Source of the DNA: an uncultured Gemmatimonadales bacterium
Lineage (GTDB): Bacteria > Gemmatimonadota > Gemmatimonadetes > Longimicrobiales > RSA9
Length of the DNA: 64,000 bases
Assembly (NCBI GenBank): GCA_963798085.1
Contig: CAWCRS010000003.1
Location: forward strand, 1,036,690 to 1,100,689
Direction of reading: 5' to 3'
Part shown: positions 55,937 through 64,000 of the stretch, one piece after another
Position numbering within the stretch: the first letter of the stretch is position 1
Layout of the letters: each line of letters opens with the position of its first letter
Position numbers and translations under genes: made by a program
Notes under the pieces: model-generated
The model's database searches: none
What the model was told of the DNA's origin: nothing
What the model saw: only the letters and a program-made list of their open reading frames with translations

Positions 55937-57636
55937 CTACGACGTGGTCATGTGTCTCCGGCGGAAGGCATCCATCAGCCGCACTAACTCGGCGTTGGTG
56001 AACGGTTGCCAGCCGTGCGGCTTCATGGGGCGGCCGTACTCGAACGTGAAGTTCGCCGGTGGGTTGGTGAGCTTTTTCGACTCCTGCTCCATCAGGTAGA
56101 CGCCGAGGTTCAGGTAGTAGTTATCCATGTCGCCGACATAGACGTGCATCTTGCCGGCCAGCTGCGATCCAATGCGCGGCCAGTTCTGGCGCAGGTTCCA
56201 CGTGAGATCGTAACCGCGGTCCCGCCAGTACGCGGCGACGCTCTTGTCGATTACGCCGGTGGACCGGTCCCATAGACGCTTCGGGTATCCGTCGGCGCCC
56301 GCCGGTCCATAGGCGGCGTCCCACGCATCGAACTGCTGGCCGCTGCGCGCATGGTCCCCGAGCACCGCTTCCAATCGGCTCATCATGCGGAAGGACAGAA
56401 GATCCTGACCCTCCGGCGTCCGGCTCATGGATCGCTCCGGCACCGGTGGCAACGCGTTGTTAGGGAAGAACGCGTTCGAGTCCGCGTAAATGTCGACGGT
56501 CTGGTTGCGCCGGAAGTCGACCGGATCGGGATAGAGACACCACGCACCGCCGAAAAAGTCCGGGCGCTGAATCTGCAGCGCGGCGCACTCCCAGCCGCCG
56601 GTGGAGCCGCCGGTGAGGAACCGCGCGTTCGCCTCGGGGATGGAATGAAATCGCCGCTCGAGCTCGGGCACGAGCTCGGTGAGGAGCGCGTCCTGGTACG
56701 GTCCGTTGTTCGCCGAGTTCACGGCGTACGAGTCATCGTAGTAGGGCGTGGGGTGTTGCCAGCTGATGGCGACGAAGCGTGGGAAGGCGTTGCTCGTCCA
56801 CGCTTCAGCGAACTCCAACCCGCTCTCGCGCGCGCTCGAGAGAGCAGGGTCCCACACGCTGGGCTGGCCACCGCGGCCGGCCCCGCGTCCCGCGCGGCCC
56901 GCGCGAGCCGCGCCCGAATCAGCCGGGTCGACGAAGCCGAACGGCGCGCCCAGCCCGAAGTGGCCCTGGCTGTAAATGGCCGGGTAACGCTCGTTCGACG
57001 ATTCGGCGAACCCCCTGGGCAGGAGCACGGTGGCCCCAATGTACACCGGCGCGCCCCAGAACTTCGACAGGAGCTCGCTCTTCATCTTCACGCGCTTGAC
57101 CCAACGCGTGTCGGGCGGAACCTCTACCGGAGGCAGCTTCTTCGTCAGCGCGAGCCGCACCGCCGTGCGCGAGTTCGGCTCGAAATGGACCTTGACCACT
57201 TCGCTCACGAGGTTCCCCGGCGACGTGCTCCAATGTTGTCCTTCCCACTGATCCGCGTGCACCCACACCGCGTGACCATCCGCACGGTGGAACTGTGTGT
57301 AGACGTTGAGCACGGCCTGCGCGTAGTAGTCGCCCGCAGGCATGTGGGCCATGTCGTCGAACGGGAATCCGGGCACCTGCGCGCCGACGGTGGTCTCGGC
57401 CCCGGGTTTCCACCCGCCGACATCGATCCCATAGAAGGGAACGCTGCCGCCGTAACTGCCGGCCTGAAAGCGCGGTTCGCGCGCGTTCGTCCGTCCGAAA
57501 TGACGAAGAGCCGGCCGGTCGTGGGCTCACTGGCGATGGACCGATCCAGCGTGACCGTCACCTGCTGTGCGACGGCTGGCGTCCTCGCGAGCGCGACCGC
57601 CACGATCGCGGCGACAGCTATGCGGAATGGGCGCAT
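55937..57636 (-). CDS. secreted esterase, paralog of 35153-36781, frameshift near 57495
   Basis: MRPFRIAVAA signal, TGRLFV, then TNAREPRFQAG..PFYGIDV in frame with DQWEGQ, QHPTPYYDDSYAVNS, GGSTGGWE. Confidence 0.85.
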
Positions 57637-57690
57637 GGTGCGCTCCTGCCAGGGAAACAGTAGGGGTGATAGCGTGGGCCGCATCCAGGA

Positions 57691-58948
57691 TGCGGCGCCG
57701 AGCGGCCCGGGGCAAGCTCACCGGTCGCGAAGCAAGGATTGCGACCTGGCTGCAATCCAGACTACCCGGACGATCCCAACTATTACGCGATCTGCAACCA
57801 AGGTTGCGACCCAGATCCCTTTGACGTGTGTGTTGCGCCGACCTTCATTATCCCCGCCGAGGGGTATACCTGTACCGATAGCGTGTACGGCTGTGAGCTG
57901 TAAGTCGGTTGTCTGGTGCGCAGGAGGAGCAGGGCACGCGCGTTGCCCTGCTCCTTACTTGGACGAAGCGGCCTTGGACCCGCGGGTACGGGTTCCTGCA
58001 GGTTGTCGGGAGGCGCGGATGGTGTCCTGGTTTGGCCGGATAGTGGTGACGCTGGTGATGTCATGCATCGCACAGGCGTGGTGGTCGTCGTCTGCCTTCG
58101 CGCAGGAGATCCGTGGACGTGTCGTTGAAGAGGTGTCGCGGATGGCCATTTCGCGTGCAGCTGTCGTTCTGATGTCTGTCGACAGCGTGGTGTTGATGAG
58201 AACAGAAACCGATAGCAGGGGCTTCTTTCGTCTCCATGCGGAAGGCGCCGGGAGATATCTCTTGCACGCAGAGCACTCGGGCCACAGCTCCCAAGTCAGA
58301 GAGGTCACCGTCCTTGAACATGGCGTAATTACCTTGCCTGCGTTTGTACTGCAGGTCAATCTGATTGCTCTGCCGCCGGTCAATGTGCGAGCGAGCACCG
58401 GTGGGGCTCCGGGTGCAAGTAGTTTCGGAAATGATAAGCATGTGCTTGACGGCGGCCGCATGGCGCTGCTGGAGGCTCACGGAGCGTCGATCTTCTCAGC
58501 TATTCGCGAACTTGGCGGCGGAGTGATAGTCAAGAGCGAACGGCAGCACTCGGCCTGCATTGAATCGGATCGGCGCTTTTTGGATTTCCAGCAGAAGCCC
58601 GGTTGCATGATGGTTATAGTAGTTCTCAATGGTGTCGTCATAGGCGATGGTGGCAGCTTGGTAGGATCAATGCGTCTCGAAGACCTGGAGAGTGTTGAGT
58701 ATCTGTCGCCGCTTGACGCAGGCCAACGGTACGGCTTGGATGCTGCGGCGAGGGGCGCAATAGTGCTTTGGACGCGTGGAAATGGACCCCATAGGTCTGC
58801 GAGCCGGAATGGCCGGGATAGGGATTAGCAGGTTGCGGGAAACGGGTAACCAAGCTGAGAATCTCTCTCCGTATGAGCGGCGTTATTGGTGGATGGCTTG
58901 CTTTGCGGCGCCGAGCGGCCCGCGGCAAGCTCACCGGCCGCGAAGCAA
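57691..58948. repeat. 45-bp direct repeats at 57691-57735 and 58904-58948
   Basis: TGCGGCGCCGAGCGGCCCG(G/C)GGCAAGCTCACCGG(T/C)CGCGAAGCAA, 43/45 identical. Confidence 0.9.
58019..58828 (+). CDS. secreted carboxypeptidase-regulatory-like domain plus TonB-plug-like protein (no barrel)
   Basis: GGAGG RBS, signal peptide, QEIRGRVVE..TDSRGFFRL..GRYLL; LESVEYL..YG..RGAIVLWTR. Confidence 0.7.
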   Translation: MVSWFGRIVVTLVMSCIAQAWWSSSAFAQEIRGRVVEEVSRMAISRAAVVLMSVDSVVLMRTETDSRGFFRLHAEGAGRYLLHAEHSGHSSQVREVTVLEHGVITLPAFVLQVNLIALPPVNVRASTGGAPGASSFGNDKHVLDGGRMALLEAHGASIFSAIRELGGGVIVKSERQHSACIESDRRFLDFQQKPGCMMVIVVLNGVVIGDGGSLVGSMRLEDLESVEYLSPLDAGQRYGLDAAARGAIVLWTRGNGPHRSASRNGRDRD

Positions 58949-58999
58949 CGTGCGCACGGTCGAGGCGAGGTTGCAGGGATCGGGTTCGATGGCGCGTTC

Positions 59000-59080
59000 G
59001 CCACGCTCCGTTTGTGCCTGCCTCCGCCATTGCGCGGCCGACGGCCGACAGGCCGCCGAGCGTGTAATGGCGTGTTAGAT
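59000..59080 (-). repeat. partial attC-like site
   Basis: ...GCCATTGCGCGGCC..GGCCGCCGAGCGTGTAATGGCGTGTTAGAT matches the right-hand portion of the complete sites; other arm not recognisable. Confidence 0.7.
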
Positions 59081-59145
59081 GACGTGCTCCGGCCTGCCTG
59101 GAACGTCACCGTGCCTGCCCGGAGTCCGGATCTGCCGGCCGCCTG

Positions 59146-60579
59146 CTAGAACTTGCTTGCGGACTCCTGCGGCCTGGCATCAACAACCACGATATCAGGC
59201 GCTTGCTCACCTCGCTCCACTGCCTCGTCCCGAAGCGTCAAGACGGCCTTGATCTTGGTGTCGTCGTCTGTAACACGAATGATCAGGAAGACGCTTGCCA
59301 GTGTTCGCTCTGCCTCGTTGTAGCGCTTTAGTTGAGTCTCATATCCGTGGACAAGGCGGCTGTGGTTCGATTTCTTCAGTTCCACCGTAACCTTGGCTGC
59401 AGATCCGTGGCTAAACTTAAAGTCGACCGGTCCAGGGCCGGCGTTTGTCTCGGGCGATATGTCCAGATCTGGGCTGCCTTCACGGCAGTATGTGAGGGCG
59501 ATTCCAAAGAATATTCGCTGGATCGCTCGCTCCGTGATAGATGTGCGCTCCCTCTTGTCAATCCACAGAGCGTCCCACAAGCCATTGCGCTCAACAAGAC
59601 GCTTGAAATGGTCACATATTTCCTTTACGGCGTCCAAGGCTGACGCGGATGTCCACCCCTGGACGGGCTTGTGAATGGTCAGCGGGTGCTTTGCGGCCAG
59701 GTCCTGCGCGCTCAAGAAGCGGCGCAATTCAGCCGCTGGATCCAGGTAGAAGTCATATGGGTCTGCGTGGGCATCGCGATAGACTTGCAGTAGAGCCTTC
59801 ATTAGGTCGGGGTTGTGACGAACGCGATCCCACAATTGCGCCTTTGATGGCCGCCGGCCCTTGGCGACTGTGGCAAAGAGCTCGTTGATCTTTGATCTCA
59901 CCGAAGCGTTGTACTGCGCCACAGCGGCGATCTCAGAGTAGCTCAATGCAAGCGGCAACTCGCGAAGAACATCTCTGGGGACGAAATAGATATGGCGCAT
60001 CTTGCCCTTGTAACGATCGACCGGAAGCTGGTACGGGGACCCGCGAATGGTCACCGGTTTCGTTGCCACGCCCAGGGTTGTTGCAACGCGCTCGGTGTAC
60101 TTGGCGAATGGTCCCTCCGCGATTCGAAGAACCACATCGCTGATCCGATCTGGGCCGTAGTCGTCGGTGAACAAGCCGACGAGTTCGAATATTCGAGGAT
60201 CTCTTTCGCCGGCTTTGATAATTCTGAATGCGCGGTCGGCAAGGTTTCTGGCCAAGCCGGCTCCTACCGCGGACCCGTCGCCGCTGTCCTTGGAGTAGCC
60301 GAGCGAAACGCCGCGCAGTTCCTTGAACTGAAGACGTTTTCTTGCCTCGTCCCAGAGTGGCCCCTCAGGTTTATCCGACAGGGAGAGAAGTGTAACAAGA
60401 TCTTCGAAGTGGGCGGTGACTGCAGTTGCAGCCTCGTGCATTTCTGGGACGCTACTGACCGCGAGCAGATGGGGATCGACGTGGAGCTGTGAATCCAGAT
60501 CAATGAAGGCGTTGAATACACCATGTCCGTCAAGTGCATCGGGCGGCACTCCGAGAAAGCTACTTAGCAGATCAGGCAT
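59146..60579 (-). CDS. cassette A: hypothetical protein with C-terminal PD-(D/E)xK nuclease-like motif
   Basis: 477 aa intact ORF; ERAIQRIF..DISPETNAGPGPVDFKFS..VTVELKKS..HGYETQL..Y. Confidence 0.75.
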   Translation of the reverse strand: MPDLLSSFLGVPPDALDGHGVFNAFIDLDSQLHVDPHLLAVSSVPEMHEAATAVTAHFEDLVTLLSLSDKPEGPLWDEARKRLQFKELRGVSLGYSKDSGDGSAVGAGLARNLADRAFRIIKAGERDPRIFELVGLFTDDYGPDRISDVVLRIAEGPFAKYTERVATTLGVATKPVTIRGSPYQLPVDRYKGKMRHIYFVPRDVLRELPLALSYSEIAAVAQYNASVRSKINELFATVAKGRRPSKAQLWDRVRHNPDLMKALLQVYRDAHADPYDFYLDPAAELRRFLSAQDLAAKHPLTIHKPVQGWTSASALDAVKEICDHFKRLVERNGLWDALWIDKRERTSITERAIQRIFFGIALTYCREGSPDLDISPETNAGPGPVDFKFSHGSAAKVTVELKKSNHSRLVHGYETQLKRYNEAERTLASVFLIIRVTDDDTKIKAVLTLRDEAVERGEQAPDIVVVDARPQESASKF

Positions 60580-60737
60580 GCCAGATTCGCTTGGATGAAG
60601 TCATTTGGTTCTTCTTCGCGACTGTCCGTGCGTGTAGACGACGGTCTGAACTGAATCCTGCTGGTTTGCGCGCGAGGCTGCAAGGTCAGCTTCGTTGAGC
60701 GATTTCGGCTCGGAATACGATAGGGCCGGAGCATGTC

Positions 60738-60877
60738 ATCTAACGTGATGGCGGTTCATGACGCGCCGAAGCCGCTTGCGGCGCAGGCGTGTCCGCGCCC
60801 TTCCCAAGCTACTCGCCTCGGCCATTGCGCGGCCAGCCGCGCGCACGCGCGGCGCAGCATGAACTAGCGTGTTAGCT
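60738..60877 (-). repeat. attC-like site (140 bp)
   Basis: ATCTAAC..GTTCATG-AC-GCGCCG ... CGGCGC-AG-CATGAAC..GTTAGCT. Confidence 0.85.
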
Positions 60878-60981
60878 GACGTTCGAACACCTGGTTGCGT
60901 TGCCGCTCTGCTCGGGACGTCCATTCTGGCTGCATGGTCACGTACCGGCTGCGATCATTCGGACGGGCGTGCCGCACTCGT

Positions 60982-61518
60982 CTACTCCGTCGGCGCATCG
61001 TCCGCTGGAGGAGGAGCACCGGAATCGTCCGCCTGCCGTTCCACCGCATACTTGACGTCCTGCACTTCCGCAAAACCCGGATCGAACACAGCACTCAATT
61101 GAAGCGTGTGGTAGGTGGCCGCTCCGCGACTCAAACCCACCCGGCGGTAATTCATCAAGCCTCGCGACTCCAGATGCAGAAACACCTGGTCGGCGGCCAG
61201 CAAGATGGCGAGTATCACGATTGCCTTCATTGGCGAGTACATCCAGCTGAGCAAGCGAGCCACGGCCACGAGCACGAGGGTGAATAACGCCAAGCGCCAA
61301 GCCCTAGCTCTGCCATACTGCGACAGGACTGCCTCCTGAAGGTGAAGTCGGCCACCCTGGTCTTCTGCGATGATGCCCTTGCTCAAGAGGCGCTGCAAGG
61401 CCGGCAACGTACGATCCACAGCAATGCTGGCACCGGCCTCCGGGGCATACCCTTGGCGAAGTTCCCGGAGAAGGGTGCGCTCCCCCCGCGACAAGAACCA
61501 ACAAGCCACGTTGCTCAT
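60982..61518 (-). CDS. cassette B: hypothetical membrane protein
   Basis: GGAGAG RBS before MSNVACWFL; two hydrophobic helices; lies between attC sites. Confidence 0.6.
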   Translation of the reverse strand: MSNVACWFLSRGERTLLRELRQGYAPEAGASIAVDRTLPALQRLLSKGIIAEDQGGRLHLQEAVLSQYGRARAWRLALFTLVLVAVARLLSWMYSPMKAIVILAILLAADQVFLHLESRGLMNYRRVGLSRGAATYHTLQLSAVFDPGFAEVQDVKYAVERQADDSGAPPPADDAPTE

Positions 61519-61698
61519 CGCTCTCTCCAAGCCGGCCCGTTCGACCCCCGGCGCGCGACAATCGATCCACGCCCACCGCCATCTACTCCCGTAAGGGACG
61601 TCCGGTCCTTCCCGACCCGATGCTCCTACCACGCCAGCTGCTCATGGAATACGCGCCCAGGCTTAACGAACGGCACGCCACAATGGTGTTCGAATGTC

Positions 61699-61844
61699 AG
61701 CTAACGTCTCAGAGGTTGCCGACGTGCCGAAGCCGACCGCAAGGGCGGCGCAGGCATGTCCGCCGCCCTTCCCTGCGTGACCGCTTCGGCTGCCCGCGGC
61801 GGCCGCCGCGCGCCAGCGCGGCCTGCGGCAAACTTGTGTTATCT
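61699..61844 (-). repeat. attC-like site (146 bp)
   Basis: AGCTAAC..GTTGCCG ... CGGCAAAC..GTTATCT; central region similar to the other sites. Confidence 0.85.
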
Positions 61845-61868
61845 GACGTGCGCCTGCCTGGGCTAAGC

Positions 61869-62841
61869 CTATGCTGTCGGAATCGCCGAGAGAACTCGGT
61901 TGAGGTCCTTAAGCCTGAGCTTCAAGGCATCGTCCACGGGTCCTGCCGTGACAACGTAAGCCGTGCGCAAGGTGGACGTTACGGGGCGACCACCCTTCAG
62001 CACTGCACACATCACGTGGGCATAAAAGACAATTGCGGGTGCCGCCTTCGTCGAATCCAGAATCGTTCGACAAGCGGCTCCGAACCGCCGACGTGGCTGA
62101 CGACAGCACCCCGCAGGGAGTCAATCTCCTCAAGTAAGAGGCGCAGCGGTATTGCGGGATCACCAAAGGCTCCCCATGTGTAGCCGCCGGCCTTATCCCT
62201 TTCACCAGGCCAATAACGTGTGCGGTCAATAATATTCTTAAGGTTGAGAAAGACGAATCCCTGATCGCAATCGCCCCTGTCGATTTGGTGAATGCCATCT
62301 GACACGCGGTCGATCATTGTCTGAGGACTCCTGGAGTGGAGTACCTTGCATGCGATACCCAGGCGGCCGTCCGGCAGGCTGGCAATGACGTCGGGATTGC
62401 TGCCGATTCGAATAATGCGGATCGTCCAGGCGTACGTCCTGGGTCCACTGCATCGCGTAGCATGCTGGCATAGAGCTCGAAGATCTTGTTCGCATCTTGA
62501 TCAGTAATCTTTGCGGGACGATTCTGGCTCGCTTCGGCCTTGTTAAGAAGCTGCAAATGTGGGACTAGTCGCGGGAAGCTCTTGTTCTGTGACGCCCCAA
62601 GCAACTGGGCTGCGAGCTCCGCGAGGGCGGCCATATCGCTGTACTCAGGCCGGATGTCGTGGTTGCACGGGATGGGCACTCCCTCCCGGGCGCGTTCAGT
62701 GATCTCCTTCGTGCTGGTGACCATCCGTTCGAGCGAACTGCCCTCGACAATGGAAATGCCAACGCCATCCAATGCGGCAATGAGTTCGTCGGCCGCCCGC
62801 TCTTCAGCGGCCGCCAGCGTAAACCCTCGCATGTTCACCAT
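61869..62841 (-). CDS. cassette C: hypothetical protein with PD-(D/E)xK-like motif, about 3 frameshifts
   Basis: Frames join as MVNMRGF..DANKIFELY / ..LDDP.. / NPDVIASLPDGRLGIACKVLHS..QIDRG..FVFLNL / ..IVFYAHV..SAIPTA*. Confidence 0.6.
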
Positions 62842-62852
62842 TGGCGCATGTC

Positions 62853-62999
62853 AGATAACGTCTCAGAAGTTCACGACGTGCCGGAGCCGACCGCATGGGC
62901 GGCGCAGGCCGTTCCACCAGCCCTTCCGTGCGTGACCGCTTCGGCCACTCGCGGCGGCCAGCGGCCACCAGGCCGCTGAGCGTGAAATTTGTGTTATAC
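62853..62999 (-). repeat. attC-like site (147 bp)
   Basis: AGATAAC..GTTCACG ... CGTGAAAT..GTTATAC; highly similar to 61699-61844. Confidence 0.85.
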
Positions 63000-63046
63000 G
63001 AAGTGTTCTTCGGCGCCTCGGTTCAGGCACTGTGCCGGATGGCCCT

Positions 63047-63888
63047 TCAAGTGATCGGCCCCAGCGGCCCATCTTGCGCAACTGATGCCCACGTTGTGAA
63101 GTAAGCCTGATCGGTCGCGATCAAGTTGACGCCAAGACGGCATGCCTTGGCCCACGACACGTCATCGTTGACCTCATATGCCCGAAAGAGTAGCGCGGGC
63201 CTGAATTCAGGCTCCACGAGAAGCTTTGTGGCGACCAAGCGATCATAACGGAAATTGTAGAACAACCGATTCGGCTGGTCGAGGGGGAACGTTGAGCCCG
63301 TCTCGATTGTTTCGTTGACGTTCCTGTCGACGAAGCACAGCCTCTCATTCAGAGAACAGTCGACGTATGTCCAAGTGCGATCAAGCTCACCGCCTGACAT
63401 GCAACAAATGAAGCGCCCCCATATCGCGCGTGCGGTTGGCCAGCCGGAGCTCGCGGCGTCCAACAAGGTCGCCGCGCTTCCAAGCAGTTCCCCAGGCGTG
63501 TAGAACATCGAGCCGGACATGGCGTCTCTAATGTAGGCGTCAAACGCCGTGGCGAATTCTCGGTCCGAGCCGGGTGAGTTCTTGATATCGAAATGCACGA
63601 AAATGGGTCAATGCCCCCCCCTTGCTCGGCGGACCAACGATCAAGTTCGGGTGGATCTGCGCTCAATTGCCCTTTCGTGCTCTTCGAATACTTGCCTCCA
63701 TGCTGAACAGACCAGCTCCAACCCTTCACATCCTGGACAATGTCAAGCTCGACGCCGCAGCTGCCACCCTTGTATGGACGGTCAGCGTGCCAGGTGAGCT
63801 GATCGGCGATCGGCAGCTTGGCCACACCGTAGCTATTGTGTACGGCCTTGACACGGATTTGCTGCATCGGAAGGTCTACTGTATCCAT
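63047..63888 (-). CDS. cassette D: PI-PLC/GDPD-like phosphodiesterase, frameshifted near 63610-63650
   Basis: KAVHNSY, GVELDI, SVQH in the first frame; FDIK and GVNLIATD in the second. Confidence 0.7.
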
Positions 63889-63954
63889 AATGCCCTCCCA
63901 CTCGAACGAGGACGACTTGTGCTGCCTGCCTCATATCTGCCGAAGAACATTTTC

Positions 63955-64000
63955 GTATAACGTGCGTTTGTTCACGAAGCCCCGGAGCTGACCGCCAGGT
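63955..64000 (-). repeat. attC-like site cut by the window edge
   Basis: GTATAAC-GTGCGTTT-GTTCACG..CCGGAGCTGACCGC matches the beginning of the 62853 site. Confidence 0.75.

Follow-up and report, generated by a model that had tools for sequence, protein, structure and literature searches.

At its right-hand end, the 64,000-nucleotide window analyzed here (the whole stretch of DNA examined, from contig CAWCRS010000003.1, here C3, of the uncultured Gemmatimonadales bacterium assembly GCA_963798085.1) carries an array of four gene cassettes, A to D (Table 1). The cassettes run in the same direction and are bounded by GTTRRRY/RYYYAAC cores that are matched within each cassette (GTTA/TAAC being invariant and the RRRY part loose). 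The array runs leftwards from the contig end and stops at a degenerate site near 58943-59080; as the window ends where contig C3 ends, the array runs on beyond the assembly. With some confidence, we favor the reading that the window shows the distal end of an integron-like array whose sites are handled by a Xer-like tyrosine recombinase lacking the I2 insertion of the integron integrase IntI, rather than by IntI itself, and that a G·T mispair fixed in the cassette ends would pick the strand while an outer stem would clamp the arm.

A sequence-only reading of the window had described terminal inverted repeats on all four cassettes, and these pairs were confirmed (21 nt in A and B, 17 nt in C and 22 nt in D). 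Counting from the G of GTT and reading the mispair on the + strand, the arms of cassettes A and B each form 20 Watson-Crick pairs plus a G·T at position 11, and a same-strand G opposite T at this position is likewise present in C and D, as had been noticed. Pairing in cassette D requires a one-base gap within a T run, possibly a homopolymer assembly error. As a control for chance pairing, the 3585 GTTR...YAAC pairs of window positions 1-58000 were examined, and none attained 15/17 matches.

A profile of the window's sites, run against the contigs of the genome, found 64 sites at E < 0.001 on C1, C2, C3 and C12, giving 58 segments (one interval was skipped owing to a partial site); removal of 10 segments from the decayed far end of C2, 3 from an isolated cluster on C3 and 2 duplicates left 43 distinct intact cassettes. 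In all 43, position 11 was G·T on the + strand, and their median end-repeat length was 21, against a comparison value of 5. Positions 12-19 were paired at no fewer than 7 of 8 positions in 37/43 intact cassettes (40/58 when all segments are counted), as compared to 0.33% of non-cognate pairs and 1/52 neighbor pairs across a site, which bears out the observation that pairing holds within cassettes and not between neighbors. Intact stems were found in 30/33 proximal and 1/10 distal segments of C2 and in 0/3 segments of the isolated C3 cluster. A motif scan of metagenomes yielded 71 loci (69 analyzed after two overlapping ones were dropped), where 61/63 distinct segments had G·T at position 11; the extended pairing holds genome-wide and in metagenome cassettes, with a median of 21 bp in each.

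Pooling both sources (106 cassettes, 43 from this genome and 63 from metagenomes), position 11 was G·T in 104 and position 8 was G:C in 103, while positions 13-18 were Watson-Crick in 89-99 cassettes, with all four pair types present at each position. This pattern is covariation around a single fixed mispair. The description of G·T as the mismatch is thus correct for position 11 and incomplete for the family, in which T·T at position 10 (48/106) and A·G at position 6 (13/106) also occur. Two other candidate explanations were rejected, i.e., random deamination as the source of the G·T (found 0-4 times at positions 12-18) and a start codon at position 11 (starts lay at or beside it in 3/108 segments).

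The stems had also been described as each cassette's own; near-identical stems were found to recur on unrelated genes. Among the 91 cassettes with good stems (of 108) there were 88 distinct stem 9-mers, and 17 pairs of stems were alike at 8/9 or more positions (2.2 expected), 16 of them on unrelated cargo. Pairs with related cargo had different stems in 54/55 cases. The stems behave as scaffolds independent of the gene. Related cargo, for the most part encoding proteins of ~400 aa, recurs in about a dozen cassettes whose stems differ (C2:404817, 410606, 416877 and 429204, and loci from metagenomes).

At C12:7530, an array of the window type begins at a junction that is no attC; the stop codon of a tyrosine recombinase gene, on the cassette strand, lies 351 bp before it. 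The encoded enzyme is without the ~40 residues at the IntI-specific I2 insertion and keeps the R-K-H-R-H-Y positions, which we take to be the catalytic residues. It scored 216 bits against TIGR02249 (cut-off 265; split match), remained under the Xer cut-offs as well (XerC 176/335, XerD 168/330 and XerA-like 200/220 bits), and stood apart from the two Xer-like proteins of the genome in a quick tree. Upstream of this gene, short low-complexity tandem repeats at G000:C12:8760-10878 hold a 998-codon frame open, the gene there being called as 382 aa (P0001).

Close relatives of the C12 enzyme were found in 28/72 genomes of the family (a tally that includes two unpublished genomes, G015 and G016, counted there only). 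Among the 33 matches, 20 loci were examined, 16 of which had at least 600 bp downstream; window-type cassettes were present at 13 of these 16, and at nine of the 13 the array starts 112-453 bp behind the recombinase gene, at a GTT preceded by non-attC sequence. Two loci (L202 and L203) have a more distant enzyme and an array further off. In the 11 family loci with chains of two or more segments, the signature of the window's cassettes was seen in 62/63 distinct segments (median length 16), these loci being kin rather than independent (e.g., L191 and L194 represent one genus). In L189, L191, L194, L196, L197 and L199, the first GTT is preceded, at ~10-25 nt, by a short conserved motif that may belong to an attI-like site. 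In L202 (G010:C22), a putative IS91-type transposase start comes immediately after the recombinase, so that not all relatives head cassette arrays.

A scan of GTDB gave 79 loci, i.e., 67 with short recombinases and 12 with recombinases of IntI length. Eight short-recombinase loci with arrays (seven from Bacteroidota and one from a spirochaete) showed the signature in 21/26 segments, with a median length of 14; as these loci were chosen by eye after the output, with L160 left out, this share is biased upward, and two-segment chains at shuffle level were counted as noise. In the quick tree, a branch with support 93 set off the 17 array-linked I2-less enzymes, along with 26 rows lacking a known array, and IntI formed a separate group (support 100). 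The idea that the I2-less group is an evolutionary intermediate was not supported, as this tree does not settle the relation to IntI. A strict site motif was found in 0/400 phylum relatives and was judged too specific because relatives carry diverged sites; a loose chain finder was too noisy, and a finder based on the L box recovered IntI arrays only. Overall, arrays with paired ends and a fixed G·T co-occur with I2-less recombinases, and the I2-less enzyme very probably acts on the window-type sites.

The same genome also carries an intact canonical IntI on C1 (410 bits), encoded on the strand of its cassettes and directly followed by 17 sites of a different type (C1:447431-464000, L009). These 17 sites form one block, and several cassettes are repeated in this integron. 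IntI-type sites were found neither in the regions of window-type arrays nor in the loci of 20 relatives, and window-type sites were absent from 8 IntI loci; the two site types do not mix. The signature occurred in 0/64 segments of IntI arrays, where the median pairing was 11 (sources were Gemmatirosa, the present genome and six loci of GTDB, with Vibrio atypicus contributing three segments, and with the arrays of Vibrio cholerae, Xanthomonas, Pseudomonas and Treponema outside the survey), and eight class 1 cassettes likewise had 8-12 bp of end pairing and no signature. These data agree with the expectation that the extension is not routine in the integrons examined, and they amend the statement that canonical ends need only the 7-bp R boxes: as ordinary IntI cassettes pair over ~11 bp, the excess amounts to ~10 bp.

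Between cassettes, a bottom-strand hairpin with R and L boxes is predicted, and its inner arms covary. The L stem is an unbroken 6-8 bp without an L-box extrahelical base, and the spacer of the R' arm is 3 nt longer in 31/45 sites (offset of 2-4 nt in 42/45). Classical attC sites are described as carrying an extrahelical L-box base and a 5-6 nt spacer on each arm (PMC5027507), and I2 as docking the extrahelical bases (PMC7790495). The sites in the window had been taken for canonical attC; with an unbulged L box and an accompanying I2-less recombinase, they are something else. Genes are inset from the cassette ends by a median of 64 nt (5') and 74 nt (3') in 61 single-gene segments. The longest open reading frame (ORF) lies on the window's - strand in 83/108 segments and on the + strand in 23, the + strand circle junction folds more stably in 42/45, and the array polarity at the C12 recombinase agrees; together with the folding models, these data support the - strand as the top strand and the + strand as the folding bottom strand, as had been proposed. 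Chimeric sites at G000:C2:403504 and 411888 combine the left arm of one subtype with the right arm of another, and their inner arms do not fully match. Small cassettes (~230-260 bp) in which no ORF is clear are found repeatedly: where the C12 array starts (C12:6916-7530), at C2:426448 and many times in L189 (G032).

Crossover at G|TT had been deduced from the paired ends; as positions 1-4 are invariant, end pairing cannot pin it, and its placement rests on analogy and on the array starts. By analogy with attC, crossover in the 5' arm of cassette A would fall between 60743 and 60744.

Circularization in silico gave the predicted gain, as the circle junction exceeded the integrated site in stability by 11.8 ± 4.7 kcal/mol (40/42), with median R-box pairing probabilities of 0.97 in the circle and 0.08 in the array. 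The extension had been suggested as something that could favor integration over excision; after positions 12-22 were scrambled, the median R-box pairing in the circle was still 0.95 (36 sites), and the outer stem is therefore not needed for the gain in the circle. Nor, in the folding model, is the stem formed only in the excised circle, as first proposed: in modeled integrated single strands, the cassette's own ends pair across the gene and loop it out (P 0.87-0.99 in 7/7), with both R boxes mostly unformed. Loop-out pairing ranged from 0.03 to 0.93 in nine scrambles (mean 0.56), and such predictions, which assume equilibrium over ~1 kb, are weak evidence.

As for the activity of the enzyme, the position of the crossover, the selection of the strand and the role of the stem, we infer the following mechanism. 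As in integrons, the bottom strand would fold and be cut at AA|C. The recombinase would read an 11-bp dif-like arm (positions 2-12); arms of 11 bp are described for Xer sites (PMC5357621). The cut-strand arm has the consensus ATTTCAGCTAA, with T11 at 99%, and the top-strand arm has C there; ATTTCAGCTAA and both arms of the Pyrococcus abyssi dif site, as given in PMC2958812, share TT at positions 11-10 and an inner TAA. T11 would belong to the cut strand in the duplex at the array start (T:A) as well as in the hairpin of the bottom strand (T·G), the top-strand hairpin having C·A instead, so that the fixed mismatch would pick the strand and hence the orientation of the cassette. It would thereby do what, in IntI systems, falls to unpaired features, among them the extrahelical bases that I2 reads. 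Past position 11, the further 3-10 bp would close the helix beyond the wobble, and long outer stems may favor the excised circle and may, within the array, bind the two ends of one cassette to each other, so that neither R box is available for excision. We lean slightly towards the G·T as a strand selector, and we consider the case for the outer stem as a selected clamp evenly poised.

Several observations weigh against this reading. No overlap joined the window's contig to the contig of the C12 recombinase when contig ends were compared, and another array of this type, starting at C1:~475205 with a non-attC junction, is without such a recombinase alongside and lies 27 kb behind the canonical intI. 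Among relatives, 3/16 family loci showed no array, and nor did most of the 67 short-recombinase loci from GTDB; in many of the latter, flanking DNA is short or the recombinase is of another group. In the folding models, the top strand still folds well (median R-box pairing 0.86), stem scrambling costs the circle little, and five IntI-type cassettes loop out as well (0.02-0.98, mean 0.59). The dif likeness of the cut-strand arm appears modest (one published site, ~6/11 letters), and how a second strand exchange would be avoided without I2 is left unaccounted for. Finally, no recombination, circle junction or shuffled read was observed in the sequencing data. Contigs derived from the runs held related sites with other neighbors, which are explained by paralogous arrays; one soil run contained 0.16 of the words, and there was no RNA run among those listed.

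One alternative retains the system as described and takes the outer stem for an idle leftover of cassette genesis, either because genes were inserted at the tip of a palindromic scaffold that already existed or because one end was copied from the other. The reuse of stems on unrelated cargo, the inset of the genes, the small effect of scrambling and the wide variation in stem length among lineages all fit such an origin. Plain copying would, however, leave a perfect repeat, rather than a mismatch that stays at the same position in three phyla amid covarying neighbors, and we consider this explanation unlikely; the intactness of stems near array starts and their decay at the far end fit selection or age equally.

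That unusual attC sites are recombined in trans by the canonical IntI, with the I2-less gene a bystander, would suit the intact IntI of this genome, the array 27 kb behind it on the same strand, and the attC-like cores and hairpin layout. It seems quite improbable, given that neither site type occurs in arrays of the other, that arrays begin right behind I2-less genes in many genomes, and that the L box offers no extrahelical base for I2 to read. Highly improbable, in our view, is Xer-like recombination between duplexes, in which T11 and G11 would each reflect the sequence preference of its own duplex arm, without any need for a hairpin. An enzyme without I2 that comes within 20 bits of the XerA-like cut-off, and a dif-like arm, speak for it; cassette-specific covariation at positions 5-10 and 12-21 and in inner arms ~125 nt apart needs pairing within a strand, and the R'-arm spacer varies in length, unlike a duplex dif core.

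The 477-aa product of cassette A matched the candidate defense model PADLOC PDC-M36A weakly (E 3.6e-7, residues 24-178) and nothing in the Pfam copy searched; this cassette is probably immobile, since its end site appears degenerate. The cargo of cassette D has a weak phospholipase C-like match (PF16670, E 3.9e-5, 23.3 bits, below the cut-off of 29.9). The ORF pairs of cassettes C and D probably each represent one split gene, and assembly indels are a likely cause of these splits and of the extra T in the T run of D. Just past the array end, a 45-bp direct repeat (96% alike, at 57691-57735 and 58904-58948) flanks a + strand gene (~58019-58828) with a carboxypeptidase-regulatory-like domain, and a similar-looking gene follows the last C1 site (482671). 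An Rfam search of window positions 56000-64000 found no match.

Table 1. Features of the cassette array in the window and the recombinase gene on contig C12
Feature	Position	Strand	Remark
Last array site, degenerate	58943..59080	-	profile match covers model positions 70-142 only; only the R''/L'' half fits
Cassette A arm, gene's 3' end	59074..59094	.	R box, G at position 11 and 10-bp outer stem
Cassette A cargo, 477 aa, DUF8370/DUF8371-type	59146..60579	-	Atlas features 0.98
Cassette A arm, gene's 5' end	60724..60744	.	+ strand has T at position 11
Inter-cassette site A/B, 140 bp	60738..60877	-	inner L stem unbulged; R'-arm spacer +3 nt
Cassette B arm, gene's 3' end	60871..60891	.	
Cassette B cargo, at most 216 aa	60982..61632	-	no family matched in searches
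Cassette B arm, gene's 5' end	61685..61705	.	
Inter-cassette site B/C, 146 bp	61699..61844	-	
Cassette C arm, gene's 3' end, 17 nt	61838..61854	.	
Cassette C cargo, two consecutive ORFs (175 + 129 aa)	61909..62841	-	no family matched in searches
Cassette C arm, gene's 5' end	62843..62859	.	
Inter-cassette site C/D, 147 bp	62853..62999	-	
Cassette D arm, gene's 3' end	62993..63014	.	
Cassette D cargo, two overlapping ORFs (179 + 183 aa)	63047..63888	-	
Cassette D arm, gene's 5' end	63939..63961	.	one extra T
Next site, start only	63955..64000	-	cut off where contig C3 ends
I2-less Xer-like tyrosine recombinase	G000:C12:7969-8760	same strand as cassettes	

If the reading of an I2-less integron-like array is true, large arrays of this kind would mean that integron surveys overlook a whole class of gene-capture elements, and that hairpin recombination can be steered by another code. 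It is possible, although we lean slightly against it, that the arrays form an overlooked, phylum-spanning integron-like class, in which I2-less enzymes use a G·T strand code outside the R box, coexist with true integrons without cassette exchange, and capture genes on reusable paired-end scaffolds, I2 being dispensable for single-strand capture. The fixed G·T and the cassette-specific stem provide sharp and cheap mutational targets, and the reuse of stems on unrelated genes provides a handle on how cassettes arise. Rowe-Magnus et al. 2003, on Vibrio superintegrons, reportedly may discuss inverted repeats at cassette boundaries. Full-text literature searches, with subscription papers largely outside their reach, found no description of long cassette-end stems, a fixed G·T or I2-less arrays, and the accessible parts of PMC5371416, PMC8946536, PMC8618304, PMC8876359 and PMC3053210 make no mention of such stems, G·T or arrays. 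The accepted view is that IntI turned into a single-strand recombinase through gaining the I2 helix (PMC7790495), and the standard integron detection tool requires the I2 domain (PMC4889954).

Compared to known systems, the arrays resemble sedentary chromosomal integrons (IntI, attI and attC, as in the Vibrio superintegrons) in their same-direction single-gene cassettes with GTT...AAC cores matched within the cassette, in the long related palindromes between cassettes, in the better-folding bottom strand and in an array start adjoining a tyrosine recombinase. They differ from these integrons in a recombinase without I2, an L stem without an extrahelical base, genes set back from the sites, and the fixed G·T at position 11 with its outer stem; the 3-nt longer spacer on one arm also occurs in the IntI-type sites of this genome and is not diagnostic alone. 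The absence of I2 and the 11-bp binding arms are shared with Xer/dif, XerA and the phage CTX, an integrative mobile element exploiting Xer (IMEX) (PMC5357621 and PMC2958812), and XerC, itself without I2, is described as recombining the folded single strand of CTX, with resolution left to replication (PMC5357621 and PMC7790495). Unlike in Xer/dif, the enzyme neighbors an array of its own and stands apart from the XerC/D-like proteins of the genome, and many variable cassettes take the place of one dif site. The arrays are also reminiscent of CALINs (attC-site clusters that have no integron-integrase; Cury et al. 2016, PMC4889954), i.e., attC-like clusters without IntI. That study saw 50 tyrosine recombinases without the IntI domain in the vicinity of attC sites and assigned four an intermediate place between IntI and Xer; these four had fewer than three sites nearby and were concluded not to be IntI. 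For these four, the main text gives no arrays, end stems or fixed mismatch, and its supplements may list relatives of the C12 enzyme. Overall, the system described here is not a classical integron: it would work like one, but has neither the I2 of IntI nor the extrahelical base of the attC L box.

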